Source of the DNA: Rhodospirillaceae bacterium
GTDB taxonomy: Bacteria > Pseudomonadota > Alphaproteobacteria > UBA6615
Reading direction: 5' to 3'
DNA length: 64,000 bases
Assembly: GCA_018702955.1 (NCBI GenBank)
Contig: JABJEK010000038.1
Span: forward strand, 128,002 to 192,001
The notes under the pieces are model-generated. The model searched no databases. It saw only the letters and a program-made list of their open reading frames with translations, and had not been told where the DNA came from. The stretch's first letter is position 1; each line of letters starts with the position of its first letter. Of the stretch, positions 43,242 through 61,251 are shown one piece after another. Position numbers and translations under genes: made by a program.

Positions 43242-44510
43242 TTACCCGCCGATGATGCCCGCCGGCCCCTTCTGGGCATCCGACAGTCCGCTCGGTGCGC
43301 CGATCCGCTCGGGCAGATTAAAGCCACCCTGCATCTGCGCCCCATAGGGGCCGACGCCGCCGTGCTCCGGCACCAGGATTTCACGCTGGTGATCGTCTGA
43401 AATCTTCCCGGCGAACACGTCATTGATCCAGTCGGCGAGGTAGCCATAGAAGTCGATGCCGCCGAAGTTCGGGCGGTTGCGCGGGTTATGGAAATCGTTC
43501 TCGATAACCCACAACTCTTTCGGTGCCGGGACCTTGTCGTAGATCGGCAACACGGTCTCGAGTGGCGCCAGCGGGTCATACTCGCCGGTCACCTGCAGCG
43601 CAGGGCACTTCACGTCAGCAGCCACATCGTCGAGCACCATCTTCGAGGCGAATTCGTCGAACTCGTCCTCGTCATGGATGCCGGCCATATACATGAACAC
43701 CTGTTTGAAGCGCGGCGAGGCCTGCTCGAAGATCGCGGTCTTGGGGCCGTAGCAGGCCGCCGCCGTGGCGACCGCCTTGACCCGCTTGTCGAGCGCGGCC
43801 ATGCGCATGCCCCAATAGGAGCCCATGGAGAAACCGGACACGGCGATCCGGTCGGGATCGACTTCGGGACGTTTGACCAGATAATCGATGGCCGCCGACC
43901 CGGCGCGCTCGTAATTGTCGAGGGTGACGCGAATCTTGCGGATGTTGCTCGTGCCCTGCCCCGGGCCGTCCAGATGCAGGCAGTTCAGGCCGCGCTCCAC
44001 GAAAGGGTGGCGCAGCGGGTCGACGAAGGCTTCCTTGGTCATGTCCATGCCCGGGCAGAACACAACCGTCGGCGCTTTCTCGGCGCCCGGCACCATGTGC
44101 AGGACGCCCTGGATGAAGTTGCCCTCGAACGGGATCTCGACCCGCTCGATCGGGTGGGACGAATGCTCCATCACCTTGCCGAAACATTTGAGCAGCATGT
44201 CGTGCAGGTAAATCTTCTCGGGATTGTCGTCCTCGAAGATCGTGTGCTGGGCCTCGCGGTAGTGCTCACTGGCAACCCAATACAGCTCGGCAGCGGTCTT
44301 TGTGTGGCCGGCCTTCTCGGCCTCCTCCGCGATCGCCACAACATGGCGGGCATGCTTGTCGACGACCCGGTGAATCTGTGCGTACGACTTCACCTCCGGC
44401 GGAATGACCCGGTTATCGTATGCGAAGTTCTGCACCCGGCCCGTGGTCTTGATGACCCAGTCCAGCATCCACTGCTGATTATCGCGACGACGTTCGGTTT
44501 TTTTCGACAT
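43242..44510 (-). CDS. alpha/beta hydrolase of the FrsA / 2,6-dihydroxypseudooxynicotine-hydrolase-like family, copy A
   Basis: ATG at 44508-44510. 422 aa. PIERVEIPFEG...GFSMGSYWG...DEDEFDEFAS. Paralogue of 60013..61251. Family assignment from memory, tentative. Confidence 0.7.
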   Translation of the reverse strand: MSKKTERRRDNQQWMLDWVIKTTGRVQNFAYDNRVIPPEVKSYAQIHRVVDKHARHVVAIAEEAEKAGHTKTAAELYWVASEHYREAQHTIFEDDNPEKIYLHDMLLKCFGKVMEHSSHPIERVEIPFEGNFIQGVLHMVPGAEKAPTVVFCPGMDMTKEAFVDPLRHPFVERGLNCLHLDGPGQGTSNIRKIRVTLDNYERAGSAAIDYLVKRPEVDPDRIAVSGFSMGSYWGMRMAALDKRVKAVATAAACYGPKTAIFEQASPRFKQVFMYMAGIHDEDEFDEFASKMVLDDVAADVKCPALQVTGEYDPLAPLETVLPIYDKVPAPKELWVIENDFHNPRNRPNFGGIDFYGYLADWINDVFAGKISDDHQREILVPEHGGVGPYGAQMQGGFNLPERIGAPSGLSDAQKGPAGIIGG

Positions 44511-44576
44511 CTGGCTTCCCCCATTTTTGCCCACCGACGGCACTTGTGCGGCGGTTTCCTGCGTGTCTCTATACAT

Positions 44577-44610
44577 CCGTGGTGCGTGTCTGAACAGACG
44601 CTCACCACGG
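44577..44610. promoter_or_regulatory. nested palindrome CCGTGGTG-cgtGTCTGaaCAGACgct-CACCACGG in divergent promoter
   Basis: 8-bp perfect inverted arms flanking an internal GTCTG/CAGAC palindrome. Sits between the divergently transcribed hydrolase (start 44510) and MFS gene (start 44649). Confidence 0.35.
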
Positions 44611-44648
44611 CGCACAATTCCCGCCATCCAATCCGGTTTCGCTACTGA

Positions 44649-45845
44649 ATGTCCAGCCCCCGCAACATAAAACTGGTCCTCATCCTGGCCCTGGTATCCG
44701 GGCTCGGGCCGATCACGATTCACGTTATCCTGCCGGTCCTGCCGGAAATCCAGCGGGTGTTCACAGCCAGCAGTGCCGTCACCCAATTCACGCTCACGCT
44801 CGGGGTCCTCGCCATGGCGGTATCGACCATCGGCTACGGGCCGGCGGCGGACACGTTCGGGCGCAAACCGGTACTGGTCGTTGGCCTCATACTGTTCATT
44901 GTCGGCAGCGGCATCTGCATCTGGTCGCCGACGATCGAGGCGCTGATCTTCGGTCGCATCGTACAGGCGGTCGGCGGGGCCGCAGGCATGGTTGTCGCCC
45001 GCGCTACCATCCGCGACATGTTCAGCCGCGAGGATTCCGCCCGCATGATCGGGCAAGTTATGTCGATCGTGGTGATCTCGCCCATCATCTCTCCCGTGAT
45101 CGGCGGGTTCATCGTGCAGTTCGCAGGCTGGCAATATGTTTTCATCCTCACCACGATCATGGGTGCGGTGACGCTTGTGTTTGCCCTGCCCAGCATTCCC
45201 GAGACCCGTGTCGCGAATGCGCAAACAAGTTCCCTTGCGCACACGTTTCGCGCGTTTCCGGGCTTGCTGCGCGACCCGGCCTTCCTGGCCTATGCCGGCT
45301 ATGCAGGTTGCGGCATGGGCATGTTCATGGTGGTCGCCGGCGGTGTTCCCTTCCTGATGGCGGATGTATTCGATCGCACACCGGCCGCATTCGGGCTGTT
45401 CTTCATGATGATGAGCGGCAGCTTCCTCGTCGGTACGGTCATCAGTTCGCGCATCACCGTGCGCGTGGGCCTGGACCGCATGGTCCGCATCGGCAGCACC
45501 GGGGCGATGGCCGCATCGCTGTTTGTCCCCGCGCTCTTTTTCGCCGGCATCCAGACACCATGGGCCATCTTCCTGCCCGGGATATTCGTGGGCATCTTCC
45601 ATGGGTTGGCGATGCCGAATGCCCAGGCCGGCGCGGTCAGCGTTAATCCCCAGGTGGCCGGTTCCGCATCGGGCCTCACCATGTTCTTGCAGATGTCCAT
45701 CGGCGCAGCATTCGGACAGGCCGCGGGCATGCTGCCGCACGATTCTGCACTCCCCGTTGCCATCCTGATCGGTATCGCCGGGCTGGGCGGATACCTCGCC
45801 TATAATGGGACCTTGTTTTTCGCCCGCTGGAGGAACATTCCATGA
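44649..45845 (+). CDS. MFS transporter, Bcr/CflA drug-efflux subfamily
   Basis: 398 aa, 12 TM segments, G..GRKPVL motif. Confidence 0.85.
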   Translation: MSSPRNIKLVLILALVSGLGPITIHVILPVLPEIQRVFTASSAVTQFTLTLGVLAMAVSTIGYGPAADTFGRKPVLVVGLILFIVGSGICIWSPTIEALIFGRIVQAVGGAAGMVVARATIRDMFSREDSARMIGQVMSIVVISPIISPVIGGFIVQFAGWQYVFILTTIMGAVTLVFALPSIPETRVANAQTSSLAHTFRAFPGLLRDPAFLAYAGYAGCGMGMFMVVAGGVPFLMADVFDRTPAAFGLFFMMMSGSFLVGTVISSRITVRVGLDRMVRIGSTGAMAASLFVPALFFAGIQTPWAIFLPGIFVGIFHGLAMPNAQAGAVSVNPQVAGSASGLTMFLQMSIGAAFGQAAGMLPHDSALPVAILIGIAGLGGYLAYNGTLFFARWRNIP

Positions 45846-46537
45846 AGACCCTATTCATCGCATTAGCCGGCCTTCTTCTTGCCGTCGTGGCGCCGTTGCC
45901 TGCTCACGCGCAAGTGCCGCCGGGCTAGAACGAGATCGAGGCTTATGACGGGCTGTTCCGGGCTGCCGCTAACGGTGATGTCGACGCCATCAACCGGCTG
46001 GTTACCGAGGGGGCGAAGCTAAACGCACGCGATGGCCGCAAACGCACGCCCCTGATGGTCGCCGCACACCTGCGCCAGTACGACGCCGCGCGCGCCCTGA
46101 TCGCAGCCGGTGCGAACGTCGACGCATTCGATGCCGACCGGTATGACGTGATCACGATCGCCGCAGTGGCCGATGACCCTCAAATGCTGCGCATCGCGAT
46201 CGCAGGTGGTGCCAACACCAGCCTGGTAACAAGCATCTATGACGGCACCGCGCTGATCGCCGCAGCACATCTGGGCCATGACGAAGTGGTGCGTACCCTG
46301 ATCCAGTTTGACGCGCCGCTGGACCACATCAACAATCTGGACTGGACGGCGCTGATCGAGGCGATCGTTCTGGGCGACGGCGGGCCGCGCCATGTCGCGA
46401 CCGTCAGGGCGCTCGTCGATGCCGGTGCGGATGTGGACATTGCCGACGGGCGCGGCGTCCGCCCACTCAGCCTCGCGCGCCAACGCGGCTATGCCGAAAT
46501 CATCGAAATTCTGGAGGCGGCAGGCGCCAAACCCTGA
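45842..46537 (+). pseudogene. secreted ankyrin-repeat protein interrupted by an in-frame TAG (45926-45928) between the signal peptide and the first repeat
   Basis: ATG 45842 overlaps the MFS stop (ATGA). MKTLFIALAGLLLAVVAPLPAHAQVPPG-TAG-NEIEAYDGLFRAAANGDVDAINRLVTEGAKLNARDGRKRTPLMVAAH... all in one frame. ORF track only shows the 160-aa downstream part. Confidence 0.6.
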
Positions 46538-46574
46538 TGCCCTCTCCGACTTGCATGCATAGAAGGACCCCAGC

Positions 46575-47180
46575 ATGAACACTGAACTCGAAGACCGGCT
46601 AAGCATAAGAGCCCTTGTGGAGAACTGGGTCGTGTGGCGCGATGCCGGCATGTGGGACCGGTTCCGTACGGTCTGGCACGACGACGGGGTGATGGTCGCC
46701 ACCTGGAAACAAGGCACGGCGGACGAGTTCATTGCCATGAGCCGCGCCGGTTTCGAGAACGGCATCAACGTCCATCATTTCCTCGGCGGCAATTCCATCG
46801 ACCTGGCGGGCGATCGGGCCATCTCCATGACCAAGATGACCATCGCGCAGCGCGCCGAAGTTCATGACGTGTTGGTCGACGTGGTCTGCACCGGCCGCTT
46901 CTATGACTTCTTCGAACGTCGTGACGGGCGCTGGGGCCTCGTCCTGCGCCAGCCGATCTATGAGAAGGACCGGATGGACCCGGTCGACCCCGCGGCCGAT
47001 CTCGAACTCGAGAAGGGCGTCCTCGATTCCTATCCCGAGGGCTATCGGCACCTGGCCTATCTTCAGTCGCGCAACGGCATGGATGTGAAGCGCGACCTGC
47101 CCGGCGTGCGCGGTCCCGAGGTTGAAGCTCTTTATACCAGAGGCCAAGCCTGGCTCGACGGTGCGGACTCGCCGTTTTGA
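46575..47180 (+). CDS. NTF2-like (SnoaL/limonene-epoxide-hydrolase-like) small protein
   Basis: 201 aa. Fold assignment is weak. Confidence 0.45.
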   Translation: MNTELEDRLSIRALVENWVVWRDAGMWDRFRTVWHDDGVMVATWKQGTADEFIAMSRAGFENGINVHHFLGGNSIDLAGDRAISMTKMTIAQRAEVHDVLVDVVCTGRFYDFFERRDGRWGLVLRQPIYEKDRMDPVDPAADLELEKGVLDSYPEGYRHLAYLQSRNGMDVKRDLPGVRGPEVEALYTRGQAWLDGADSPF

Positions 47181-47225
47181 ACAACACCCATTAGTCTGTC
47201 GGCGTTTTCTCGGAGGAATTTGAAT

Positions 47226-49541
47226 ATGCAGTTCGGTATTGGCCAGTCGGTCCGTCGCAAGGAAGATCCTAAGTTTCTGACCGGCCGGGGGCGTTATGTC
47301 TCCGACATGGTGTTGGCCCGCCAATCCCATGCCGTCTTCCTCTATTCCCCGTACGCGCATGCGGACATCAAATCGATCGATACGTCCGGTGCCGAAGCCG
47401 CGCCTGGCGTGATTGCCGTCCTGACGGGCGCCGACTATGTGGGCGACGGGATGGGGCCGACCGGCGGCGTCATGCCCGAAGACATGGGTGGGCCTCCCGG
47501 ACACCGGACCATGCATATGCCGCTTGCGGTTGACCGGGTGCGGTTCGTCGGTGAACGCGTGGCTGTGGTGATTGCCGAAAGCGAGGACCAGGCACGTGAT
47601 GCCGCCGAGCATGTGATCATCGACTATGCCGACCTGCCGGCTGTCGTCATGGCCGCCGACGCCGTCAAGGACGGCGCGCCGCTGGTCCATGACGAGGCGG
47701 AGAACAACGTCAGCTTCACCCTGCGCCTCGGCAACGGGGACGAGACCGACGCCGCGATCAAGGGCGCCCACCATGTGACGCGCATCAAACTCCACAACAA
47801 TCGCCTCGACGCGATGACCATGGAACCGCGCGGCTGTCTGGGTGAATTCGACACGAGCACAGGCCGCCTCACCTTTTATACAAGCACGCAAAACGTGCAT
47901 GGCATCCGCCAGGGCCTCGCGGCCCAGAATCTGAACGTGCCCGAAAGCATGATCCGCGTCGTCGCGAAGGATGTCGGCGGCGGGTTCGGCATGAAGGGTC
48001 ATGTCTATCCCGAAGAGGCTGTCGTCGCCTGGGCCTGCAAGCGTGTCGAACGCCCGGTGAAGTGGATCGCGACGCGCAGCGAAGCGATGATGGGTGACGA
48101 TCACGGGCGCGACCAGACCGTCGAGGTGGAATTGGCGCTCGACGAGAACGGCAAATTCACAGCGCTGCGCTGGCACGCCCTGCACAATGTCGGCGCCTAT
48201 ATCGAGGGCGCGGGGGCAATTCCCGTTCTGTTCGCGGTCAAGCTGGCACCGACCGTCTACAACATTCCCAACGTGGACGTGATCAACAAGGCTGTCTTCT
48301 CCAACACCTCCCCGACCGTGCCTTACCGAGGTGCGGGCCGGCCTGAGGCGGTCTACATCATGGAGCGGGTGGTCGATGCGGCCGCGCGCGAGACCGGGAT
48401 CGACCGGGCCGAGCTGCGGCGGATCAACTTCATCACACCCGAGGAAATGCCTCATTCGACCCTTACGGGCTGGACCTACGACACCGGCGATTATGCGACC
48501 GCCCTCGAAAAAGCACAGGGTATTGCCGACTGGGACGGATACAACGCACGCAAGGCTGCGACGGAAGCCAAGGGTCTAAAACGCGGCCTGGGGCTCGTCT
48601 ATTACGTCGACAACACCGGCATCTTCAACGAACGCATGGAGATCCGTTTCGACCCGAGCGGCACGGTCACGATCGTGTCCGGCGTGCTCTCGCATGGTCA
48701 GGGCCACGAGACGTCATTCTCCCAGATGCTGGCGGAATGGCTGGATATCCCGATCGAGGATGTCCGGCTGGCCCAGGCGGACACAGATGAGGTGGCCATC
48801 GGCCGCGGCACCTACGCATCGCGCTCCATGATGGTTGGCGGCAGCGCGCTCCGCGCGGCGGCGGACGAAGTTATCGAGCGCGGCAAGAAGTTCGCGGCGC
48901 ACTTCATGGAGTCCGACGCGGCCGATATCGAATTTAGCGACGGCAAATTCACGATCGCAGGCACCGACAAGGAAATGCCCCTCAAACAGGTGGCGCAGAT
49001 GTCGTTCATGCCGGTCCATGTCCCGAGCGAACTGGGTGTCGGACTGCAGGGTGTCGGCGCGTTCGCCGCGGAGGTGCCCAGCTTCCCCAACGGCTGCCAT
49101 ATCGGCGAGGTCGAGATCGATCCCGATACGGGTGCCGTACGCATCGATCGCTACACGGTCGTCGATGACATCGGCACGGTGATCAACCCGTTGCTCGCGC
49201 AGGCCCAGATCCATGGCGGCGTGGTGCAAGGCGTCGGACAGGCACTTCTTGAGGATGTCGCTTATGATCCGGAAAGTGGCCAGCTCCTTGCGGGCTCACT
49301 CATGGACTATGGCGTGCCCCGCGCGGACCTGATGCCCGAAATCAACGTCGATTTCAGTCCGGTATTCAGCAAATCGAACCCGCTCGGCGCGAAAGGCGTC
49401 GGCGAAGGTGGCACGGTCGCCGGCACGCCGACGATCGTCAACGCGATCCTCGATGCCCTGGCGGAATATGGCGTGCGGGAAATCGATACGCCGGTCACCC
49501 CGCAGCGGATCTGGCAGGCGATCCGGAAATCCGGCAGCTAG
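47226..49541 (+). CDS. xanthine dehydrogenase / aldehyde oxidase / CoxL-family molybdopterin-binding large subunit, with no small or medium subunit genes nearby
   Basis: ATG at 47226 after GGAGGA. QFGIGQSVRRKEDPKFLTGRGRYVSD...GGGFG... About 771 aa. Confidence 0.85.
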   Translation: MQFGIGQSVRRKEDPKFLTGRGRYVSDMVLARQSHAVFLYSPYAHADIKSIDTSGAEAAPGVIAVLTGADYVGDGMGPTGGVMPEDMGGPPGHRTMHMPLAVDRVRFVGERVAVVIAESEDQARDAAEHVIIDYADLPAVVMAADAVKDGAPLVHDEAENNVSFTLRLGNGDETDAAIKGAHHVTRIKLHNNRLDAMTMEPRGCLGEFDTSTGRLTFYTSTQNVHGIRQGLAAQNLNVPESMIRVVAKDVGGGFGMKGHVYPEEAVVAWACKRVERPVKWIATRSEAMMGDDHGRDQTVEVELALDENGKFTALRWHALHNVGAYIEGAGAIPVLFAVKLAPTVYNIPNVDVINKAVFSNTSPTVPYRGAGRPEAVYIMERVVDAAARETGIDRAELRRINFITPEEMPHSTLTGWTYDTGDYATALEKAQGIADWDGYNARKAATEAKGLKRGLGLVYYVDNTGIFNERMEIRFDPSGTVTIVSGVLSHGQGHETSFSQMLAEWLDIPIEDVRLAQADTDEVAIGRGTYASRSMMVGGSALRAAADEVIERGKKFAAHFMESDAADIEFSDGKFTIAGTDKEMPLKQVAQMSFMPVHVPSELGVGLQGVGAFAAEVPSFPNGCHIGEVEIDPDTGAVRIDRYTVVDDIGTVINPLLAQAQIHGGVVQGVGQALLEDVAYDPESGQLLAGSLMDYGVPRADLMPEINVDFSPVFSKSNPLGAKGVGEGGTVAGTPTIVNAILDALAEYGVREIDTPVTPQRIWQAIRKSGS

Positions 49542-49803: not shown

Positions 49804-50823
49804 TTGTTCAAATCATTGAGGTATCTCGCAATTGCAGCTGCGGCGTTGCCGTTTGTTGCGACTGCCAATACGGCGAGTGCACAGGATCTCGTCGTCGCCG
49901 CCGCCGGCAATCCCGGCGGTCTTGCTGTTTTCGTGGCCCAGGAAAAGGGTTTCTTCGCGAAGAACGGCGTCGACGTGAAGGTCGAAATTCGCAACACCGG
50001 CTCGGAGCTCTCCAAGGGCCTGCGCGCGGGCGATTTTGACTTCGCACCGGCCGCCTTCACCAACCTGGGTGCCGCTCTCGAGCGTGGCCTGGATGTCCGC
50101 GGCATTGTCGGCTATGTCGGCGCGGCGTTCGAGAAATCCACCTCTGACGCAGTCGTTGCGCTCATCGCGGGCCCCAATTCCGGCATCAACTCGGTTGCGG
50201 ACCTTAAAGGCAAAAAGGTCGGCGTGACGTTCGGTTCGACCGGCGACGTTTGGCTGCTTCAGGCCCTGAAGCAAGCTGGTCTGAGCTCCAATGACGTCGA
50301 TCGCGTCAACACCCGCCCGCCGGGCCTCGTGTCCGTACTCGACACCGGTGGCGTGGATGCCATTGTTGGCTGGGAGCCGTTCAACTTCCGCGCCCTGCAA
50401 AAGGTCGCAGGTTCCAAGGAAGTCAAGCGTGGCGGCGACCTCGTTTGCTTCTGTGCTTATCTGCACGGCAACCCGGAAAGTGTCTACAAGGACGAAGCGG
50501 CAACGCAGAAGCTTGTGGACGCCATGTCCGAGGCCGCTGCGTATGTGCGCAACCCCGCTAACAAGCAGGAAGTTGCCGAGATCGGCACTCGTTTCGTCAA
50601 CATGACGAAGGAAGAAGTTCTGGCCGGCCTCGATTTCTGGGTCTACGACCCCCGGATCGGTCCGAACACGAGCGCTGCCTTCGAGAACGCCAACGCGCTT
50701 CTTCGCGAGCAGAAGAAGATGAAGAAGCCTTTCCCGGCGGCTGACTATCTGGACTCCAAGTTCATCGAATCGACGATGAAGCGGCATCCGGAGTGGTTCG
50801 CTGACCTTGGCGGCGCAAGCTAA
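49804..50823 (+). CDS. ABC transporter substrate-binding protein, NMT1/THI5-like (NitT/TauT family)
   Basis: TTG start 6 nt after GGGAGGG. Signal peptide MFKSLRYLAIAAAALPFVATANTASAQ. Confidence 0.8.
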   Translation: MFKSLRYLAIAAAALPFVATANTASAQDLVVAAAGNPGGLAVFVAQEKGFFAKNGVDVKVEIRNTGSELSKGLRAGDFDFAPAAFTNLGAALERGLDVRGIVGYVGAAFEKSTSDAVVALIAGPNSGINSVADLKGKKVGVTFGSTGDVWLLQALKQAGLSSNDVDRVNTRPPGLVSVLDTGGVDAIVGWEPFNFRALQKVAGSKEVKRGGDLVCFCAYLHGNPESVYKDEAATQKLVDAMSEAAAYVRNPANKQEVAEIGTRFVNMTKEEVLAGLDFWVYDPRIGPNTSAAFENANALLREQKKMKKPFPAADYLDSKFIESTMKRHPEWFADLGGAS

Positions 50824-50863
50824 GCCGTTAGGTATTTCAGAAGCACATCAATTTTGATGACAT

Positions 50864-50894
50864 GACGGGCGCGAAACTGTTTTTCGCGCCCGTC
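50864..50894 (+). terminator. perfect 13-bp stem-loop GACGGGCGCGAAA-loop-TTTCGCGCCCGTC between the binding-protein and ATPase genes (partial terminator/attenuator)
   Basis: Seen directly at 50864..50894. No U-tract follows, so more likely an mRNA-stabilising or partial-termination hairpin setting SBP:ATPase stoichiometry. Confidence 0.4.
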
Positions 50895-50911
50895 AAACCT
50901 TCAGGAACATC

Positions 50912-51709
50912 ATGACCACCGACGCAAAACTCATCGTTCAGGGGCTCGCCCACCACTACCCCGACGAATACACAGGTGAATCCGTTCACGCGCTGCAGGA
51001 CATCAACCTGCAGATCCACGAGAACGAGTTCGTCGCAATCGTAGGCCCCAGTGGCTGCGGAAAAACGACATTCCTCAACATCATCGCCGGCCTGCTTCCC
51101 TATCGCGAAGGCCGCGCCATGGTGGATGGTGTCGAAATTCGCGGACCGGGCCCGGACCGAGGCGTCGTGTTCCAGGAACACGCGATTCTGCCATGGCGGA
51201 CCGTAAACCGGAACATTGGTCATGGCCTCGAAATACGCAAAGTTCCCAAAGCGGAGCGCGAGCGCCGCGTGCAGGAGTATGTGGACCTGGTCGGCCTGTC
51301 CGGCTTCGAGGACCGCTACCCCCACGAACTATCCGGTGGCATGAAGCAACGTGTCGCCGTGGCCCGCACGCTCTGTGCAGATCCCGTGATTATGCTGATG
51401 GACGAGCCGTTTGCCGCCGTCGATGCACAGACCCGTATCACGCTCCAGGATGAGCTCAACCGGGTCGTCATGGCGACCAAGAAAACCATCCTGTTCATCA
51501 CTCATTCGGTCGAGGAAGCTGCCTTCCTGGGCGATCGCTGCATCGTCTTCTCGCGGCGCCCCGGCATGGTCAAATCCGAGATCAAGATCGATATTCCACG
51601 CGAAGAGCGCTTGTGGAAAGACATGGTGAACAACACCCGCTTCACCGAAGCGCGCGACGAAATCCTGAGCCTGGTGCGCTCGGAGGTCACCAGCGATGTC
51701 GACGGTTGA
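50912..51709 (+). CDS. ABC transporter ATP-binding protein (NitT/TauT family)
   Basis: Walker [23 protein letters not shown] signature, Walker B LLMDEPF. Confidence 0.9.
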
Positions 51710-52511
51710 TACCGCGCCGATCCGGCGCAAATCTTTCAAGAAAATGGTCACCGACAGCCGGGCGATCCAGCTGGTCATTCTGCTCGTCGGCGTTTTGATC
51801 CTCTGGGCCATCATCTCCGCAGTCATCGAACGCCCGGATCGATACCTTCCCTCGCCGCTCACGACGCTCTTCTCTTCCGTCGACCTGCTGCAAAAGGGCG
51901 TATTGACCAGTTTCTATGCCGACACGCTGACCCGTCTGGTAATCGGTAGCATCCTGGGAATTGGCCTCGGCATTCCGTTCGGCCTGTTGCTCGGCCTGAA
52001 TCGCAACATCGCGGACATGTTCTACCCGCTGATGAATTTCTTCCAGTCTGTGTCGGGTATCGCCATTTTCCCGGTGATCGTCATCTGGTTCGGGAATAGC
52101 AACACGACCGTGATGATCGTGATCCTGTACACGGCCTTCTTCCCGATCGCCTTCAACGTCCTATCCGGCGTTCGCTCGGTGCCAATGCGTTACATCAGCG
52201 CCGCACGCACACTTGGCGCGTCGCGGTTCCAGATCGTGAAAGACGTATTGTTGCCCGGCGCCATGCCTTCGGTCGCCATCGGGTCGCGCCTGTCTATCGG
52301 GTTCGCCTGGCGCGCCGTGATTGCCGGTGAAATGCTCGCGGGCCAGGCGGGCCTCGGCAACATGATCTTCGCGGGTCAGGAACTCGACAACACCGCACAG
52401 ATCATTCTGGGCATGATGCTCATCGGACTGACCTGGATCATGCTGGACCATTATCTACTGCGTCCGCTTGAATCCGATACCATCGAACGCTGGGGGCTCG
52501 TACAACGATGA
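51696..52511 (+). CDS. ABC transporter permease (NitT/TauT family)
   Basis: 271 aa, six TM segments, EAA-like loop. Confidence 0.85.
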
Positions 52512-53368
52512 CCGCCATTAACGAATTTTCAGTTGCCGTTCAGCGCAAATTTGGCCGTCAGCGCCTGCGCAAATTCGGCCTCGGAATCATTCCGTTCATT
52601 GTCCTGATTACCCTGTGGCACATGAACACGATCTTCGTCTGGTTCGATCCGGTGGAAATTCCGCCGATTGCAGATGTCTGGGATGCCATCTTCTGGCTCC
52701 AAAGCGATTGCCCGGGGATTCTCGCCGCTATTGAAGGCCACAATGGCTGCCAGTTGACCAACAACATCTCTTCGTCAATCGCCCGTGTGATCCTGGCGAT
52801 GGCTGTCGGTGTTCCGCTGGGTGTCGCATTCGGCATCATGGCCGGCATGAACCGCGTTGTTTCGGCTTATCTTGAGCCAATTGGCGTGTTCATGAACTCG
52901 GTCTCCGGCATTGCCTGGATCCCGCTCGCCATTGTCTGGTTCGGTGTGGGCTGGGAAACCACCCTCTTCATCATGCTGAACACGATCTTCTGGTTGCTGT
53001 TCTTCAATACGATGATGGGCGTACGCGCCGTACCAAAGGTTCTCATCCAGGGCGTATATACGCTGGGCGGAAACCGGCTCGACGCGATCCTGCAAGTCTA
53101 CCTGCCGGGGGCAATGACCTCGATTATCACCGGCCTGCGCATGTCCATGGGATTCGGCTGGCGCGCGTTGATTGCGGCCGAGATGATCGGCGGCGACAGT
53201 GGGCTGGGCTTCATGATTTTCGTATCGTCCGCAGAGTTCAAGACCGAGGAAGTCTTCCTCGGCGTGATCCTGATCTCCCTTATTTTCCTCGCGACCGACC
53301 GATGGATTCTCGTGCCACTTGAGAAGTGGACCATCGAGCGGTGGGGCCTGGTCTGGAAGCCTACTTGA
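52508..53368 (+). CDS. ABC transporter permease, second subunit
   Basis: 286 aa, paralogous to 51696..52511. Confidence 0.85.
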   Translation: MTAINEFSVAVQRKFGRQRLRKFGLGIIPFIVLITLWHMNTIFVWFDPVEIPPIADVWDAIFWLQSDCPGILAAIEGHNGCQLTNNISSSIARVILAMAVGVPLGVAFGIMAGMNRVVSAYLEPIGVFMNSVSGIAWIPLAIVWFGVGWETTLFIMLNTIFWLLFFNTMMGVRAVPKVLIQGVYTLGGNRLDAILQVYLPGAMTSIITGLRMSMGFGWRALIAAEMIGGDSGLGFMIFVSSAEFKTEEVFLGVILISLIFLATDRWILVPLEKWTIERWGLVWKPT

Positions 53369-53369
53369 T

Positions 53370-53744
53370 ATGACCTCACAAGAAATGGATGAAGTCCGCC
53401 CGGTTCGCCGGCGACGGGCTTGGTACAAACGTCGGGACATCCTGTTCATTGCGTTCGTCGCAGCCGTCTGGCTCGGCTGGGGAGGCTATGGCCTCGTGAC
53501 CGGTCCCACGCGTATCACAGATGCACTGGAAACCGCCCTCGACGCGGACCCCAAGACCGTCAATCTGCTTGTCACGGCCAAATTCAGGCCCGAACGCTTC
53601 CACTCGAACGTCTACAATAATTATGGCGTGCAGCGTGGAACCGAAGGACGGGTTACGAAACTGTTCCGGGTTCGACCATCAGGCGTCCGATGGCTCTCTC
53701 AACAGTACTGGATTGAACAGATCGACGTCATTCCACCCGAGTGA
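53370..53744 (+). CDS. hypothetical small membrane-anchored protein, translationally coupled to the permease
   Basis: ATG 53370 in TGATATG overlap with the permease stop. Arg-rich N-terminus then one TM helix (ILFIAFVAAVWLGWGGYGLV). C-terminal about 80 aa of unknown fold. Confidence 0.4.
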   Translation: MTSQEMDEVRPVRRRRAWYKRRDILFIAFVAAVWLGWGGYGLVTGPTRITDALETALDADPKTVNLLVTAKFRPERFHSNVYNNYGVQRGTEGRVTKLFRVRPSGVRWLSQQYWIEQIDVIPPE

Positions 53745-53833
53745 TCGCTAAACGGCGATTCCCTTGCCAATTGGCCGTCCGACCTTCTAAAACCCGGCTC
53801 GCATCAATTTCCAACGAGCCGGCGGCCCTACCC

Positions 53834-54724
53834 ATGAACGATGTCAGCACGCCCGACGCGCCCCAGCATTTCGACCGGCGCTATATTCTGAAACTGTCCT
53901 GTCCCGACCAACGCGGCATCGTCGCCGCTGTTGCGAGCTTCCTTGCCGAGCAGGATTGCAACATCCTGGAATCGGCGCAGTTCGACGACGAGATGTCCGG
54001 ACAATTCTTCATGCGCACCGTATTTGGTGCCGGTGTGGCAACCCCGAGCATCGACAACATCTCGGCGGCATTCGGCCCCATCGCTTCTCGTTTTGCGATG
54101 GAATGCTCGATCCATGACCTCCAGGTAAAGCCGAGGGCGCTGATTCTGGTCTCCAAACCGGGACACTGCCTGAACGATCTGCTTTACCGAACCAGTTCTG
54201 GTTCACTGGGCCTCGAGGTCGCAGGTATCGTATCCAACCACCCCGATCAGCAGCCCCTCGCCGACTTCTACAATCTCGACTATCACCACCTGCCGGTGAC
54301 GCCAGAGACCAAAGCGGGTCAGGAAGCGAAAATTCGGGATCTGATCGATGAGACCGGCGCCGACCTGATCGTCCTTGCACGTTACATGCAGATCCTGACG
54401 CCGGAGATGTGCGCGTTCCTGAGCGGCCGCTGCATCAATATCCATCATTCATTTCTGCCGGGCTTCAAGGGCGCCAAACCCTATCACCAGGCGCATGCGC
54501 GCGGGGTGAAGCTCATTGGCGCCACCGCTCACTATGTGACCCCCGATCTGGATGAAGGCCCGATCATCGAGCAGGAAACCAGCCGGGTGAGCCACGCGCA
54601 CACACCCGAGGACATGGAGCGGATCGGGCGTGATCTGGAAAGCGTCGTACTCGCCCGCGCGGTGCGCTATCACATCGAACAGCGGGTATTGCTTCGCGGC
54701 GACCGAACAGTCGTCTTTTCCTAA
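53834..54724 (+). CDS. purU: formyltetrahydrofolate deformylase
   Basis: ACT domain (YILKLSCPDQRGIVAAVASFLAEQDCNI) followed by formyltransferase core (HHSFLPGFKGAKPYHQA, GATAHYVTPDLDEGPII). Confidence 0.9.
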   Translation: MNDVSTPDAPQHFDRRYILKLSCPDQRGIVAAVASFLAEQDCNILESAQFDDEMSGQFFMRTVFGAGVATPSIDNISAAFGPIASRFAMECSIHDLQVKPRALILVSKPGHCLNDLLYRTSSGSLGLEVAGIVSNHPDQQPLADFYNLDYHHLPVTPETKAGQEAKIRDLIDETGADLIVLARYMQILTPEMCAFLSGRCINIHHSFLPGFKGAKPYHQAHARGVKLIGATAHYVTPDLDEGPIIEQETSRVSHAHTPEDMERIGRDLESVVLARAVRYHIEQRVLLRGDRTVVFS

Positions 54725-55267: not shown

Positions 55268-57750
55268 GGTGATCTGTTCGGATGCATATCAAAGAGCAGC
55301 TCCGCAAGCTCACTGAACTCCATCCCCGGCCGCATGACATCCGCTAACTTGGGATAGAGATTCGCGTAGGCATCGTTGCTCAGAACTAACCGATCGTCCT
55401 CATCCCAAAGCAGGAAACCGTCGTGCAAGCTACCAATGGCATCTGCAAGCCGTATTTCCGCCTGCCGGATCGCGGTGATGTCCGTGCGAACGGCGACCGC
55501 TCCACCTTCTTCGGTATGACGGCGTGACACGCGCACGACACGGCCATCATCGAATCTGCGTTCAAAGTCGACTTCCTCACCGTGCATCCGGAATTGTTCT
55601 TCAATCCATTCCTCTTCACGACCGAGGGCATCCTTAACTTTCCCGCTGTATGCAAAGACACGGATCATGTCATCGAATGCCATTCCGATATGTATCTGGT
55701 CGACCGCATCGCCAAAATCTCGCGCCCAGCTGCTGTTATAGGCGGCGAGCCTGTCGTTCCCGTCGAACAACACAAAGCCATCCTGAATGGCCTCGATCGC
55801 GTCCCGCAATCGCATCTCGACCCGCTTCAGTTCGGTCGCCTCCGAGTTCAGGACAACAACACCACCATCTCGCGTATTGTTGGCCGAGACGACATAGGTG
55901 CGATCATCGGGAAAGCTAACCTCGACATCACCCTCGGGATTTCGGTGCTGCTCGACACGTTCATCGATCCACGCATCGAGATCGGAAGTATCGGGAACCA
56001 GAATACCTGTCTCGACCGCCATGCGGATCACGTCGCGGATGTTCATCCCGACTTCGATCTCGCCCCCAAGCGACTGAAACATTTCAAGATACTTGCCGTT
56101 GGCGATGACCAGACAATCATCCTTGTCGTAGAGCGCAAAGCCATCGCGCATACTTTCAATCGCATCGGTCAGGCGATATTCAGCATGCTTCATTTCGGTA
56201 ATGTCCGACCTGAGGGTCACAATGCCGCCGTCGGTGGTGCTGTGCGATGCCACCCTCAGCGTCTTCGCGCCAATCTGAAGCTCCTGCAGGGTGTGATCTA
56301 CCGCGTGCTTGGCGACCTGATTGTCTATCCACTCATCCCTGTCGATCGCATGCCCCTGCATTTCGACAAGATCAAAGGTGAACCCCATCAGCTCTCGAAA
56401 AGTGACCCCTGGCACCACCCGGTCCGCATATTCGCCAAAGTCCCGACGGTATCGCTCGTTCGCCACCACCAGACGATCATCGGCATCGTAAAGCACGAAG
56501 CCATCATTGAGGCTTTCGATCGCATCGCGCAGATGTGCCTCGGCGCGTTTGACCTCGGTGATGTCGGTACGAATACCAACGATGCAGCCATCGTGCATCC
56601 GCCGGTCCGTGATCAGAATCCAGCGACCTTCCGTTGTCTCCATTTCATGGTGCTGGCCGTTGTCTGCAGTGTGAACTACGCACATACGCTCTACCCACGC
56701 CTCCGGATCCGCAATCACCTCAGGGTCGGCGTAATGACCTGTTTCAATACCCAGGCGAAGAACATCCCTGAAATGCATGCCCGCGCCCTCCACCATCGCC
56801 GGCATGAACGGGAAAAACTCACGGTATCTGGAGTTGTAGCGAACGATCCGATCATCGGAATCATAGAGAATGAAACCATCCGAAAGAGTTTCGATCGCTT
56901 CGGCAAGAAGGCGTTCGGCCTGATCGGTTTCTGTTTTCGCCTTTTCAGCCTCGCGACGCGCCTTTCCGAGATCCTGCTCGCGCCGCCATTCCTCATCCAC
57001 ATCGCGAACCGCACAATAGAGTTGCCCCATCTGGTCAGCCGTGATGTGCCAGTCCGTCCAACGTGAGCTTCCCGAACCGTCGATCACCCGGACTTTAAAC
57101 CGTGCGGTCTCCTGCCCCGCGATCAGATTGTCGAGCGCGCGCTGAACGATTGGCTGGTCTTCCTAGAAGACCAAGTTTATCAGGGGCTCGCCAGATAATG
57201 CGGCGGCATCACGCCCCAGAATTTTTTCCCACTCCTGATTGACGGTATGAAGCCTGCCATCGCTGCCGGCCATTCCCAGAAGGTCGTCCGACAACTCGAA
57301 AAACCGCTGATAGCGCTGACGCGAGCGCGTCACATCGCGCAACGCCTCTTCATTTCGGCGCTGGTCCGTGACGTCGCGAAAACGGGTGACAAAGCCGCTT
57401 TCGATCGGTCGACCGTGAATTTCAAGAAAGGCGCCGTCCGGACGTTGGCGCGTGAGAGTATAGGCATCGCCCGGCGCGAACAATGAGATGACTTGCGTCG
57501 TTAGTTCCTCGGCATCCCCGGGTCCATAGTCTCCGCGCTCCGCCGCAAAACGTACAGACTCGATCCAATCCTGCCCCGGCTTCATGAGCTCCGCAGGTAT
57601 ATCCAGGAGTTCCTGTGCCAGCGCATTCGACGTCACGACGCGCAATTCGGAATCGAATATGATGACGCCGCCACCGAGCGTATTCAGAACACCCTGGAGC
57701 ATGCTGCTCGTATCTTGCGTCGAACCTGCCGAACTTCCGTCCATCACCAT
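55225..57750 (-). pseudogene. tandem-PAS-repeat protein (about 7 PAS modules, no output domain) split by an in-frame TAG at 57163-57165
   Basis: ORFs 57163..57795 and 55225..57087 share a frame. The 25 codons between them read EDQPIVQRALDNLIAGQETARFKVR and continue into GSGSSRWTDWH.... Repeats follow the pattern RL.DAIESL.DGF.LYD.DDRLV. The C-terminus ends abruptly against the HlyD fragment. Confidence 0.55.
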
Positions 57751-57926
57751 ACCGTCCAAGCCATCTGCACGTGGCAATTCCACTTCCCGAAACAACTCTG
57801 GGCTGTATGTTGCACAGAATTCGGGCGCGCGACGTTAACTTATTTCGCCTGGCGTCAATAAATGGTTAACAGGCGGCACAGATGCGCGGTATTCGGGTGA
57901 TTTATCAGGCTCTTAGGTGACCACTT

Positions 57927-58757
57927 CTAGTTGTTAGAGACCCACTTAACTAAACTTCCAACCCACAGTCCCTCCGCGTGACCGCAGGCATATGAGGAGC
58001 CGAGATGGTCGCAGTCCGACAGGCTAACGGTCTTAACCGTACCGCCGGCGTCTTGCAGTGCCCGCGCCATTTTTTCTGCCTGCACAATGAGGTGAGGAAA
58101 ATCCCGATCGCCCCATGCCATCAGGAATGGCGGCGTATTCGTCATCGTGTGAATCGGGCTGGCGTCGGTGTCGTTTCCAGCGTTCTCGCCCAGGAAACGG
58201 GGATTCGCAGGCATTCCATTGCCCTCGGTGAAATCATAGACACCTGAGACCGGCAGCGCGCCCCGAATGACATCGGCGGGCACGCCGGCGGCTTCCTGCC
58301 AGTCGGACCGAACGGCGAGCCACGCCGCCTGATGCCCGCCTGCAGAGTGTCCGCCCACGAAGATGCGCTCAGGGTCACCGCCATGGGCTGCGATATTGTT
58401 GTAAACCCAGGCAATCCCAGCCGCTGCATCTTCAACGCCGGCCGGCCAGATGACAGCAGGAGCCAATCGGTACCCGATACTGACGAATGTTATGCCGGCT
58501 GCCGTCAGCGCCGGGGCCATAAAGGCCATCCATTCCTTGTAGCCGTTCGTCCAGCCGCCGCCGTGCATGAACGCGACGACGGTTCCGTTCGGCTCGGGTG
58601 CGGCAAATACGGCTACTTCCTGATACGGATCATCGCCATAGGCGAAGGATTCACCACTTATGCCTGCGCCCAGTTCCTGGACACGGACATGATACTTCGC
58701 GCCGATATCGGAAAAAGGTTCCTGTGGCGGATATGAATCGAGGTCGCGAAGTCCCAT
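57927..58757 (-). CDS. alpha/beta hydrolase fold-3 (HGGG-type) esterase/deformylase, arylformamidase-like
   Basis: FMHGGGWTNGY oxyanion motif. GGHSAGGHQAAW nucleophile elbow. ATG 58755-58757 overlaps the upstream stop (ATGA). Confidence 0.8.
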   Translation of the reverse strand: MGLRDLDSYPPQEPFSDIGAKYHVRVQELGAGISGESFAYGDDPYQEVAVFAAPEPNGTVVAFMHGGGWTNGYKEWMAFMAPALTAAGITFVSIGYRLAPAVIWPAGVEDAAAGIAWVYNNIAAHGGDPERIFVGGHSAGGHQAAWLAVRSDWQEAAGVPADVIRGALPVSGVYDFTEGNGMPANPRFLGENAGNDTDASPIHTMTNTPPFLMAWGDRDFPHLIVQAEKMARALQDAGGTVKTVSLSDCDHLGSSYACGHAEGLWVGSLVKWVSNN

Positions 58758-59839
58758 CAGCGTTCCTCGCGTTCAACGATCATCTTTTCATCAACGAATT
58801 TACCGCGTTCGATCACAACTTCATTGTCGAGGAGAACGGTGCAGTCCCGCATCGGCACGTCATAGTGGCCATTCGTGCTACGGCTGCCACCGCCTTGCGT
58901 GTTCGGGCCCGTGGAGAACAGGAAATTGCCAGGGAAGGTCCGCGCTGACGCGTGGGATCGCTCGGGATTGTCTCCATGCAGGGCAATATTGTACCAACGC
59001 GACTGCGGGTTCATTCCCCAACCCAGATGAGAGACCGCGTAGGGGTCTAGGTCATCCTCGGACAGCTTGTTGTCATCGAGCCAATCGGTCATCAACTTGG
59101 CGTCGAGGCCACCCTCGACCTTACGAATAAATCCATCGCGAACCTCGAGCCTCACCTCGTCCTGCACGTAGCGGCAGTAGGGCAAAATGACGATATCGCC
59201 TGGCGACATAATGACCGTTCCATTGGCGGAACCTTCATTGGGGAATGTATGGATATGCCCCACCCCCCATTGGTCGAAATGCCCGGGCTCGTCGGAATAT
59301 CCCCACTGGCTCATCACGGGAAAATCGCCCTTCGAGTAGGTCAGATCGGTACCCGCATCACTAAGAACGCGAACTTCCTTCGTCGCGGTGTAGCGCGCGT
59401 CCGCATACTTGACCGCCTCCTTCAAACCTTTCGGTGAGAGAAGCAATTCAAGGTCATCCGGTGCATCGATGATCATCAGGAACCGGGTTCCGGTCGCCAT
59501 CACCTCGCGCAGCCAGCTCGTAAACAGTGGAATATGCAGCGCCACGACGATATCGGCGGCCTTGAGAGCATCGAGCATACCGTTGATCTGGCCGATGGTA
59601 TCAACTCCGACCTTCGTCCAGGACGGGATCATATTGACGCGCATCTCATAGCAATCCGCGCCCAGCTCGTCGGCGGCCGCGAATGCCGCCTCGACATACT
59701 CCGTGCGCGTCGTGACGTCCGACAGCAACGCGACAGTCTCGCCTTTTTTGACGTTGGACATCTGGAACTGCTTGAGAAACAGGCCGGGAATTCGCCCGGC
59801 GTTGATTTCCTGATGACGGACGGCGGCTGGCGTACGCAT
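58757..59839 (-). CDS. aminopeptidase-T-fold (COG2309) protein resembling 2,5-dihydroxypyridine 5,6-dioxygenase (NicX/Hpo type)
   Basis: 360 aa. GYSDEPGHFDQWG...GDIVILPY...VSHLGWGMNPQSRW...HGD...GNFLFSTGPNTQGGG...HYDVPMRDC matches my recollection of NicX-type Fe(II) ring-cleavage enzymes. Assigned from memory, not from a search. Confidence 0.45.
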   Translation of the reverse strand: MRTPAAVRHQEINAGRIPGLFLKQFQMSNVKKGETVALLSDVTTRTEYVEAAFAAADELGADCYEMRVNMIPSWTKVGVDTIGQINGMLDALKAADIVVALHIPLFTSWLREVMATGTRFLMIIDAPDDLELLLSPKGLKEAVKYADARYTATKEVRVLSDAGTDLTYSKGDFPVMSQWGYSDEPGHFDQWGVGHIHTFPNEGSANGTVIMSPGDIVILPYCRYVQDEVRLEVRDGFIRKVEGGLDAKLMTDWLDDNKLSEDDLDPYAVSHLGWGMNPQSRWYNIALHGDNPERSHASARTFPGNFLFSTGPNTQGGGSRSTNGHYDVPMRDCTVLLDNEVVIERGKFVDEKMIVEREER

Positions 59840-60012
59840 GGCTTTCTTCTCCGCTTCAACGGGTTGAACAATTACCTCATGCTAACCGATCCATCGGGGT
59901 GGTGCGAGACGCCACACCGATGGCTCCCCGCGACAATTCGTCAAGACATCCGCCGCCCGCTGTGCTCAGATAATTCTCTGATAATCAAAAACAGAAGTTG
60001 GGGAGAAAGACC

Positions 60013-61251
60013 ATGATGCGCGCATTCACCGAGCAAAAAATGAAGCGCTTCGCCGAGCAACGCTGGATTCTGGACGCCATCATTTCGTCGGTCGGCATGG
60101 AGTGGGATCAGCCGCGGCTAGGCTACACCATGTATCCCTGCGGCCCCGACGCCGTCGGCGATTTCCGTACTGTGGGTATGCGCACCAAGAAATTCGCGGA
60201 CATGCATCGTGAATTCGCCGGCGCAGCCAAGCGCCGCGAGATCAAGGCAAAGGCCTTCGAAGCCGAGGATCGGCTGGTCTCGGCCCGCGAGAGCTACTTC
60301 ATTGCGTCCCTGCTCTACTCCGCGGCGCGCTGGCCCATCTTCGAGGCCAATGACCTGCACAAGGACTACAACCAGCGCATGGTCGATTGCTACGACAAGT
60401 ATATCGAGTTCGCGCCGCGCCCGATCGAACGGGTGGAAATCCCCTTCGGTGACGGCGTCCTGCCGGGGTTCCTCGCGCTGCCCCACGCGCCGAAGGAGGG
60501 GGAAAAGTTCCCCTGTGCCATCGGCATCGACGGCATGGATGGATCGAAGGAGATCATGTGCTCGATGTATGGCGACAAAATGCTCGAACGCGGCATGGCG
60601 AGCTTTGTCTATGACGGTCCGGGCCAGGGCGAGTGCCCGGTCAACGGCGTGTATGTGACAAAGGATAACCATATGGAGGCCGCCCAGGCCGTCTATGACT
60701 GGCTGATCCAGCACCCGAATATCGACAAGGACCGGCTGGTCATATTCGGGATCAGCTTTGGTTCATTTTTCGGTGCCCAAGCCGCCGCCCAGTTGGGCGA
60801 CAAGGTCAAGGGTGCCGCGCTCTCCTTCGTCTGCCACGAGCCCGGCTGCTATACGATTTTCAATATGGCCGCACCGACCTTCAAATTGCGGTTCATGTTC
60901 ATGGCCAACTATGACGATGAGGCCGAGTTCGACGAATTTGCCAGCGAGTTTTCGCTGGATCCGATTGTCGACCAAATCAAATGCCCCATCCTGGTCCAGG
61001 GCGGACAGGATGAGGAACTCAGTCCGGTCGAATGTTCGGAGGACTTTGTGAACAAGCTGTCCGTTCCCAAGAAGCTGGTCTTCTATGAAGGCGAGCGCCA
61101 TGCGATCGGTGGCGGGTCTGCCGCCTATCTGGGTGAGAACTGGTACACGATGCTGGCCGACTGGTGCCTGGACAGGGTGAATGACAAACCCGCACCGAAC
61201 GAATCCGTTCTCATCAACTCGCTGGGGCAGGCCGAGGCAACGCCCTACTAG
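60013..61251 (+). CDS. alpha/beta hydrolase of the FrsA / DHPON-hydrolase-like family, copy B
   Basis: ATG 60013 after GGGAGAAAG. PIERVEIPFGDG...GISFGSFFG...DDEAEFDEFAS. Colinear with copy A (43242..44510). Confidence 0.7.
   Translation: MMRAFTEQKMKRFAEQRWILDAIISSVGMEWDQPRLGYTMYPCGPDAVGDFRTVGMRTKKFADMHREFAGAAKRREIKAKAFEAEDRLVSARESYFIASLLYSAARWPIFEANDLHKDYNQRMVDCYDKYIEFAPRPIERVEIPFGDGVLPGFLALPHAPKEGEKFPCAIGIDGMDGSKEIMCSMYGDKMLERGMASFVYDGPGQGECPVNGVYVTKDNHMEAAQAVYDWLIQHPNIDKDRLVIFGISFGSFFGAQAAAQLGDKVKGAALSFVCHEPGCYTIFNMAAPTFKLRFMFMANYDDEAEFDEFASEFSLDPIVDQIKCPILVQGGQDEELSPVECSEDFVNKLSVPKKLVFYEGERHAIGGGSAAYLGENWYTMLADWCLDRVNDKPAPNESVLINSLGQAEATPY

Follow-up and report, generated by a model that had tools for sequence, protein, structure and literature searches.

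The window analyzed here, a stretch of 64,000 nucleotides from a Rhodospirillaceae bacterium (assembly GCA_018702955.1, contig JABJEK010000038.1, positions 128,002 to 192,001), carries two genes for serine hydrolases of the PF06500 family, hereafter copy A and copy B. Its G+C content is ~60%, and the matching contigs were metagenome-assembled genomes (MAGs) of marine Alphaproteobacteria labeled Rhodospirillaceae or MarineAlpha12. Copy A (43242..44510, minus strand) encodes a 422-aa protein with a predicted Ser228/Asp312/His341 triad and the oxyanion motif G154-M155-D156, while its 412-aa paralog copy B (60013..61251, plus strand) has Ser248, Asp333/Glu334, and His363, with the motif G174-M175-D176. 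Both are cytoplasmic two-domain serine hydrolases, each with an N-terminal helical cap, an alpha/beta core, and an intact nucleophile-acid-His triad. The true start of copy A is MSKKTERRR at 44510, and the gene corresponds to the 3' 422 codons of a spurious 832-codon open reading frame (ORF; 43242-45740, minus strand), a high-G+C artifact that continues copy A antisense across the neighboring MFS transporter gene. Copy B starts with MMRAFTEQ at 60013.

An earlier note, made from the sequence of this stretch, had described A and B as colinear, moderately similar copies and had taken them for two specialized copies, suggestive of two related N-heterocyclic substrates handled in parallel. The description was confirmed: the proteins shared 34% identity over 384 aa (BLASTP, E 2e-64), colinear from residue 1 to 364 of A, and the PIERVEIPF and DE(D/A)EFDEFAS blocks, together with the G-x-S-x-G elbows (GFSMG, GISFG), were found in both. 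Profiles built from 43 A and 41 B orthologs aligned with a probability of 100 and an E value of 1e-61 (hhalign), and common descent is secure. At the nucleotide level the copies were 49% identical overall, third positions agreed in 42%, and even the best-matching 12-codon windows had only 27 to 28 of 36 nucleotides in common, which excludes both a recent duplication and gene conversion. Gene conversion as a source of the identical EFDEFAS and PIERVEIPF blocks was ruled out, the nucleotide identity being that expected from amino acid conservation. Orthologs 55 to 75% identical to each copy occur in other classes or phyla; identities of 70 to 72% separate alphaproteobacterial from Chloroflexi members of the A group, and the B group extends at 61 to 74% to Betaproteobacteria and Myxococcota. 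Judged by these sequence comparisons, A and B are anciently separated paralogs, each in its own widely spread ortholog group. Given their age and the spread of their orthologs across classes and phyla, the pair is not a local specialization of a duplicated gene, which weakens the reading in the earlier note.

Two close relatives (L015, 19618-20913; L032, 20127-21068; both minus strand) encode a third paralog, 41 to 42% identical to A, at a distance of ~10 kb downstream of B, and a counterpart may lie just past the end of the window. No cultured organism and no experimental datum was found for either ortholog group, and every one of the 61 B loci drawn from the genome collection came from a MAG.

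Both proteins passed the gathering threshold of Pfam PF06500 (FrsA-like, DUF1100; 22 bits), A at 47.4 bits and B at 46.0 bits, and the best Pfam and NCBIfam names for the two were FrsA-like and FrsA. These names favor orthology with FrsA, the fermentation/respiration switch esterase. However, both fell far short of the NCBIfam FrsA equivalog NF003460 (60.3 bits for A and 49.1 for B, core region only, against a cutoff of 477), and together with the trees described below this score effectively refutes FrsA orthology, which we regard as vanishingly improbable. The PF06500 matches spanned only profile positions ~110-298 of 414. Escherichia coli FrsA was 22% identical to A and B, and its nucleophile position is taken by Arg in place of the Ser of both copies.

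Searches of solved structures pointed elsewhere in the family. With the single sequence of A the best match was 2,6-dihydroxypseudooxynicotine (DHPON) hydrolase (DHPONH; EC 3.7.1.19; 2JBW, E 8e-18, nearly full length), and with that of B the best were Ayg1, Wdyg1, 2JBW, and AntI. The family profile of A matched 2JBW over nearly its full length at 98 bits (E 4e-27), with the runner-up at 61 bits, while that of B scored Wdyg1 at 68, 2JBW at 66.5, Ayg1 at 66, AntI at 62, and FrsA at 45 bits. An AlphaFold2 (AF2) model of A (predicted local distance difference test score, pLDDT, 91.8) also had 2JBW as its top Foldseek match (E 1e-22, template modeling score, TM, 0.78-0.80). For the model of B, Ayg1, 2JBW, Wdyg1, and FrsA matched about equally, 2JBW with an E value of 2e-17 and a TM of 0.82.

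Neighbor-joining trees were built from 23 taxa and then from 58 taxa that included representatives from a library of 1.84 billion proteins; FrsA was set as the outgroup. In the 58-taxon tree the A clade and the B clade, the latter including a Polymorphobacter plasmid protein, each received 98% bootstrap support, and a super-clade of A, B, and proteins from Bacillus and Cupriavidus received 81%. This super-clade joined an assemblage containing DHPONH and AntI at 62%, to the exclusion of Ayg1 and Wdyg1. The representative search itself returned 643 clusters at E<=1e-30; among the best 150 of these, full-length matches outside the A, B, and Bacillus/Cupriavidus groups were closest to 2JBW (31 to 46% identity) and never to FrsA, AntI, or Ayg1, so that the nearest group outside the super-clade was DHPON-hydrolase-like. 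On this phylogenetic footing, A and B form part of an uncharacterized super-clade of PF06500 alpha/beta-hydrolases that lies outside FrsA proper and neighbors the DHPON-hydrolase/AntI assemblage. By the same comparisons they are not DHPON hydrolase orthologs, with 22 to 26% identity to that enzyme and a separate super-clade. The earlier note had proposed a phylogeny with DHPON hydrolase and FrsA, and neither copy fell in FrsA; its claim of kinship with C-C hydrolases held insofar as the nearest solved relatives are DHPON hydrolase, Ayg1/Wdyg1, and AntI, while a C-C-cleaving activity is at present inferred from relatives 21 to 26% identical. Plasmid-borne relatives from Bacillus mycoides (pBWB401), Cupriavidus pinatubonensis (p2), and Polymorphobacter, 35 to 37% identical, were also considered as a guide to function and set aside; their contexts (MarR/LysR regulators, branched-chain ABC transporter, haloalkane dehalogenase) were uninformative.

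The active sites were compared with that of DHPONH, whose triad is Ser217-Asp300-His329. Ser228, Asp312, and His341 of A occupy homologous positions, as do Ser248 and His363 of B, in which the aligned acid column holds Glu334, next to an almost invariant Asp333. The G-[LM]-[DE] oxyanion motif is common to A, B, DHPONH, and AntI, and it does not discriminate because FrsA has it as well (L-D). A DGPGQG motif was present in A, B, DHPONH, and AntI and was not found in Ayg1 or FrsA. Glu248 has been reported as the tautomerizing residue of DHPONH; with the numbering anchored on Ser217, Asp300, and His329, residue 248 is Trp in 2JBW, and the nearby Asp249 and Glu251 aligned to E and A in copy A and to N and A in copy B. 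Each family has invariant polar residues of its own near the active-site loops (S188, N189, and R191 in A; C208, H220, H275, and R293 in B). These distinct residues would be consistent with different substrates for A and B, although they are no proof of them.

Copy B is divergent, across 173 bp, from a gene (58757..59839, minus strand) encoding a homolog of the NicX-family 2,5-dihydroxypyridine 5,6-dioxygenase. This protein matched the solved NicX 7CN3 over residues 17-349 (E 4e-62), and its SHxGWG, FSTGPN, and H-x-D motifs were conserved. PF26233 (NicX) is on record for an identical protein, whereas our Pfam-A scan returned no match, the model evidently being missing from the scanned copy. 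The start of the next gene (57927..58757, minus strand) overlaps the NicX stop by 1 nt and encodes a 276-aa Abhydrolase_3 (HSL-type) esterase, a candidate N-formylmaleamate deformylase. An inverted repeat with 15-nt arms (59888..59926) lies in the NicX/B spacer. On the other side, a gene for a luciferase-like (LLM) flavin monooxygenase (61268..62392, minus strand) is convergent with B, and downstream of B lies a gene (62493..63419, plus strand) for a 308-aa HSL-type esterase that is LipP1-like (298 bits against a cutoff of 350).

To place this arrangement in context, 61 genome loci of B were surveyed, among them 27 marine loci 86 to 98% identical to B and 33 at 61 to 74% identity. NicX was divergent from B in 26 of the 27 marine loci, the coupled Abhydrolase_3 gene was present in ~23, the HSL esterase in ~22, and the LLM monooxygenase in ~10. 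The divergence of B from a NicX/deformylase pair, as read from the single window, was thereby upheld within the marine lineage but was absent from the 33 more distant B loci and from four NicX loci of other lineages. At the distant loci, B stood at the end of operons of three types: a molybdenum (Mo)-hydroxylase large subunit, a beta-propeller/cytochrome c protein, DUF1275, HpaB, and B, with Amidohydro_2 divergent; a double cyclase, a short-chain dehydrogenase/reductase (SDR), 3HCDH, and B, with FAD and Rieske oxygenases alongside; or TRAP DctPQM, B, and M24.

The near-constant pairing with NicX in marine genomes raises the alternative that B acts after NicX in the maleamate pathway, as an N-formylmaleamate deformylase or a maleamate amidohydrolase that replaces NicD or NicF. 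Alpha/beta-hydrolases do serve as deformylases in pyridine pathways (NicD, KpiB; PMC7356986), and no NicD or NicF ortholog was seen among the annotated genes of the window, nor an isochorismatase-type or maleate-isomerase gene among the annotated neighbors. The translationally coupled Abhydrolase_3 protein is nevertheless the better deformylase candidate, as orthologs 50 to 53% identical to it accompany NicX in two lineages in which no B-type gene occurs, and the distant B orthologs do without NicX within 10 kb; we therefore consider a maleamate-pathway role for B unlikely. Those two lineages came from the four other NicX loci (70 to 72% identity to the NicX of the window), two of which, with NicX at 71 to 72% identity, were NicX-SRPBCC-FAD-FeS-MoCo-Abhydrolase_3 operons. 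Since its orthologs travel with NicX, it is Abhydrolase_3, and not B, that is the conserved NicX partner. The two operons, which carry the SRPBCC gene as CoxG, lie at 8001-14123 of a Rhodovibrionaceae MAG contig (L155) and at 2185-8155 of a Tara MAG contig (L158), and they look like the compact clusters for conversion of 3-hydroxypyridine (HpdA-type) into the maleamate pathway in marine bacteria. The architecture is that described for the four-component 3-hydroxypyridine dehydrogenase HpdA with a maleamate pathway (bioRxiv 10.1101/2020.01.08.898148).

Copy A lies in a different setting. Across a 138-bp divergent spacer (44511-44648) it faces a gene for a Bcr/CflA-family MFS efflux transporter (44649..45845, plus strand), and the spacer contains an imperfect dyad with 16-nt arms and a 2-nt central spacer (44577..44610). 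The symmetry of the dyad was kept in orthologous spacers while the sequences of its arms varied. On the side toward copy A it is adjoined by a strictly conserved TGTATAGAG box, which precedes the A start by ~55 nt, and no regulator gene was adjacent. Downstream of A, at a distance of 45 bp and on the same strand, lies a gene for an Amidohydro_1 protein of the ATZ/TRZ/MTA-deaminase/8-oxoguanine-deaminase type (41703..43196, minus strand), which is convergent with pdxA (40558-41730, plus strand). This protein matched PF01979 at 188 bits, and its best PDB matches were MTA/SAH deaminase, 8-oxoguanine deaminase, AtzA, and TrzN; because all NCBIfam equivalogs were below their cutoffs, no specific function could be assigned. 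Beyond the transporter follow genes on the plus strand for an ankyrin-repeat protein (46055..46537), a SnoaL_4 (NTF2-like) protein (46575..47180), and a CoxL/QorL/KdhL-like molybdenum hydroxylase large subunit with a PYRGAGRPEA loop (47220..49541), with no Fe-S or FAD subunit gene adjoining. They are succeeded by an NMT1/SsuA-type ABC transporter (49804..53368, plus strand; binding protein 49804-50823, ATPase 50912-51709, permeases 51696-52511 and 52508-53368) and a PurU formyltetrahydrofolate deformylase (53741..54724, plus strand), with which the block showing synteny with A in close relatives ends. The neighbors named in the earlier note, namely the MFS exporter across the palindrome, the deaminase-type amidohydrolase, and NicX with the hydrolase paired with it, were all real. 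PurU and the marine origin also brought homarine/trigonelline catabolism into consideration; this was rejected, the enzymes of homABCDER (FAD enzyme, partner protein, peptidase, aldehyde dehydrogenase) being unrelated to the locus.

Eighty metagenome loci of A were then compared. At loci at least 84% identical to A, the MFS gene was kept in 18 and the block of ankyrin, SnoaL, Mo-hydroxylase, ABC transporter, and PurU genes in 12, where the flank was available. The metal amidohydrolase followed A only in the window, a near-identical contig (L002), and three further loci (L075, L076, and L101); among ~16 close relatives it was present in 3. In seven loci the slot between A and pdxA (41703-43241 in the window) was instead occupied by a 480-aa AS-family amidase gene (e.g., L085, 11285-12727), and elsewhere it held other genes or led straight to pdxA. 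The A-amidohydrolase operon proposed in the earlier note is therefore a local, exchangeable arrangement; adjacency at 45 bp was confirmed, and a conserved unit was not. Such a slot is a caution against inferring function from gene order in a single genome. Among A orthologs at 55 to 75% identity (Chloroflexi, Actinobacteria, Xanthobacteraceae, and others), a TctC binding protein was the most frequent downstream neighbor (13 loci), at times accompanied by genes for thiamine pyrophosphate (TPP) enzymes, CoA-transferases, or SMP-30-like proteins.

These data also bear on whether A and the amidohydrolase could be a pair like KpiC and KpiB, in which the PF01979 protein, as a non-canonical dioxygenase, would open a dihydroxypyridine ring and A would hydrolyze the N-formyl product, mirroring NicX and its hydrolase at the B locus. 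There is a precedent in KpiC, an Amidohydrolase_1 protein that opens 3,4-dihydroxypyridine and whose product is processed by the alpha/beta-hydrolase KpiB (PMC7356986), and no terminator was found between the two adjacent genes. Yet KpiC groups with enamidase-type proteins while the window amidohydrolase is a relative of the ATZ/TRZ/MTA and 8-oxoguanine deaminases, KpiB belongs to Abhydrolase_1 and not to PF06500, and the amidohydrolase gene was missing from most close A loci, with the AS amidase in its stead in seven. Such a pair is accordingly very unlikely.

A possible cross-link between the two settings was provided by the Mo-hydroxylase. Three CoxL-like large subunits, 40 to 43% identical to one another, all with a YRGAGRPEA loop and all without adjacent Fe-S or FAD subunit genes, were found beside A in the window, in operons of soil B orthologs (L034, L035, L040), and beside a NicX gene (L156). 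They were 28 to 31% identical to HpdA-like subunits and 25 to 26% identical to XdhB. Orthology between the Mo-hydroxylase beside A and the HpdA-like one of the NicX operons was ruled out at 30 to 31% identity. The arrangement of A and the orphan hydroxylase recalls plasmid pAO1, on which the gene for DHPON hydrolase adjoins kdhL (PMC6122326). The three orphan subunits lend modest support to a recurring association between hydrolases of the A/B type, this type of hydroxylase, and dihydroxypyridine cleavage. The ankyrin-SnoaL_4-Mo-hydroxylase trio (46055-49541, plus strand) was kept in close relatives of the window.

From the family placement and the gene contexts, we tentatively propose that A and B are cofactor-free hydrolases acting on hydroxylated (hetero)aromatic catabolic intermediates, most likely by retro-Claisen cleavage, with B serving the NicX module and A another substrate; we hold this as plausible while still short of probable. 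Each copy would remove an acyl side chain flanked by a carbonyl or enol of the ring. By analogy with DHPON hydrolase and Ayg1, Ser would attack the ketone, the ring would depart as a stabilized enolate or pyridone, and the acyl-enzyme would then be hydrolyzed. In the marine lineage a dihydroxypyridine would be set free by B, perhaps with help from the LLM monooxygenase and the HSL esterase; NicX would then open its ring, and the coupled Abhydrolase_3 protein would deformylate the product. A would have another substrate, linked to the block of the orphan Mo-hydroxylase and transporter, and the amidohydrolase behind A, or the AS amidase of sister genomes, may represent an exchangeable accessory step releasing nitrogen, with neither being an obligate partner. 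The repeated occurrence of B orthologs in operons with ring hydroxylases counts in favor of this proposal.

Several observations weigh against it. Identity of A or B to any characterized enzyme is 21 to 26%, and we therefore infer, and do not read off, both the C-C hydrolase activity and the N-heterocyclic substrates; no substrate can be named for either copy. The alignment of A and B has no conserved acid at or around the position of DHPONH residue 248. The AF2 model of B had a pLDDT of 78, with the loops bearing the acid and His below 50, and Foldseek did not separate FrsA (E 6e-17) from the C-C hydrolases (1.3e-17) for this copy. NicX occurred within 10 kb of B at none of the 33 loci at 61 to 74% identity (Xanthobacteraceae, Stellaceae, Betaproteobacteria, and Myxococcota), and no A/B-type gene lay near the four NicX orthologs of other lineages. 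Adjacency of B and NicX, being confined to one lineage, therefore probably reflects one evolutionary event. For A, two loci at 80 to 83% identity with long flanks (L094, L100) had none of its neighbors, so that the linked synteny is gone below ~83%, and the TctC, TPP enzyme, and CoA-transferase genes found with distant orthologs are uninformative on N-heterocycles.

The restriction of synteny around both copies to close relatives and the heterogeneous contexts of distant A orthologs are also what would be expected if A and B were ordinary carboxylesterases, lactonases, or peptidase-like hydrolases whose neighborhoods reflect shared descent in one marine lineage and not function. The source annotations are generic (such as dienelactone hydrolase or pimeloyl-ACP methyl ester carboxylesterase), and esterases of poly(ethylene terephthalate) (PET) and mono(2-hydroxyethyl) terephthalate (MHET) also match the catalytic core at 47 to 62 bits. 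Strong conservation of each group across classes and phyla points instead to a specific function, the nearest full-length relatives are all enzymes acting on C-C bonds, and B orthologs stand repeatedly beside ring hydroxylases. We take the generic esterase seriously but regard it as a less probable account than cleavage of hydroxylated ring intermediates.

A more far-reaching form of the ring-cleavage proposal is that the A/B super-clade constitutes a new functional class of cofactor-free hydrolases devoted to hydroxypyridine or pyridone catabolism. In these abundant marine Alphaproteobacteria, the HpdA-type four-component Mo dehydrogenase would have given way to B, acting with the LLM monooxygenase and HSL esterase, as the supplier of 2,5-dihydroxypyridine to NicX, and a second heterocycle would fall to A and the orphan CoxL-like hydroxylase. 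We offer this as speculation, with low expectation that it holds in full. If true, it would amount to a marine pathway not described so far, acting on a substituted pyridine such as an acyl- or alkyl-pyridine or one derived from a vitamin or alkaloid. If cleavage of ring intermediates by A and B is correct, it would supply a function for a large unnamed FrsA-like branch, whose hundreds of 50%-identity clusters bear no annotation beyond names such as alpha/beta hydrolase or dienelactone hydrolase, and a handle on the degradation of pyridine-type dissolved organic nitrogen by uncultured marine Alphaproteobacteria. A literature search for FrsA-like proteins with dihydroxypyridine, or for NicX with marine bacteria, returned nothing. 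Overall, the reading in the earlier note is partly supported.

Elsewhere in the window, a multi-PAS_7 sensor gene (55225-57702, minus strand) has an in-frame stop at 57163-57165 (LINLVF*EDQP). A 99%-identical contig (L003) has Gln at this position and encodes an uninterrupted 825-aa protein; either a nonsense polymorphism, a pseudogene, or an error of assembly accounts for the stop. A 772-codon ORF (37721-40039, minus strand) is a high-G+C artifact antisense to genes for an NAD_binding_2 protein (38828-39763, plus strand) and a pirin (39693-40712, plus strand). The upstream region (312-2449, minus strand, and 6121-13486) is densely catabolic, with two tandem LLM monooxygenases, a GntR/UTRA regulator, an MR/MLE enolase, 3HCDH, enoyl-CoA hydratase, a family III CoA-transferase, and Ldh_2, and it also contains a DMSO-reductase-type molybdoenzyme (14335-16782).

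Among known systems, DHPON hydrolase of Paenarthrobacter nicotinovorans pAO1 (2JBW) shares with A and B the two-domain PF06500 fold, an aligned Ser-Asp-His triad, and the DGPGQG and G-[LM]-[DE] motifs. It ranks first for A by sequence, by profile, and by fold, and jointly first for B, and like copy A it is encoded near a CoxL-type Mo-hydroxylase large subunit. In contrast to it, A and B (22 to 26% identical) form a separate clade, and nicotine-pathway genes are not present; unlike on pAO1, the Mo-hydroxylase gene of the window is without Fe-S and FAD partner genes, is divergently transcribed, and lies 2.7 kb from A. Ayg1p and Wdyg1p (8QD1, 8QD7) and AntI (6HXA), which are among the top sequence and fold matches of B, have the fold and triad of A and B as well as an acid after the oxyanion-hole residue, which is Asp188 in Afyg1p (PMC11165489) and corresponds to M155-D156 in A and M175-D176 in B but is present in FrsA too; the chemistry of these enzymes is retro-Claisen. 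They differ in identity (17 to 25%) and in function, acting in polyketide pigment biosynthesis beside polyketide synthase (PKS) genes, none of which was among the window annotations. FrsA (E. coli b0239; Vibrio vulnificus 3MVE, 3OUR, and 4I4C) has its Pfam family and overall fold in common with A and B (TM ~0.65), but only the core aligns by sequence and E. coli FrsA is without the elbow Ser. The B locus resembles maleamate modules of the nic/3hpd type in its NicX homolog, with conserved metal-ligand motifs, and in the hydrolase coupled to it. No NicC, NicF, or NicE equivalents were seen, and unlike 3hpd the marine B locus has B, the LLM monooxygenase, and the HSL esterase instead of a four-component dehydrogenase. 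A and B are new, uncharacterized representatives of an already known hydrolase family, in settings plausible for the catabolism of N-heterocycles, and they are not a new kind of system.

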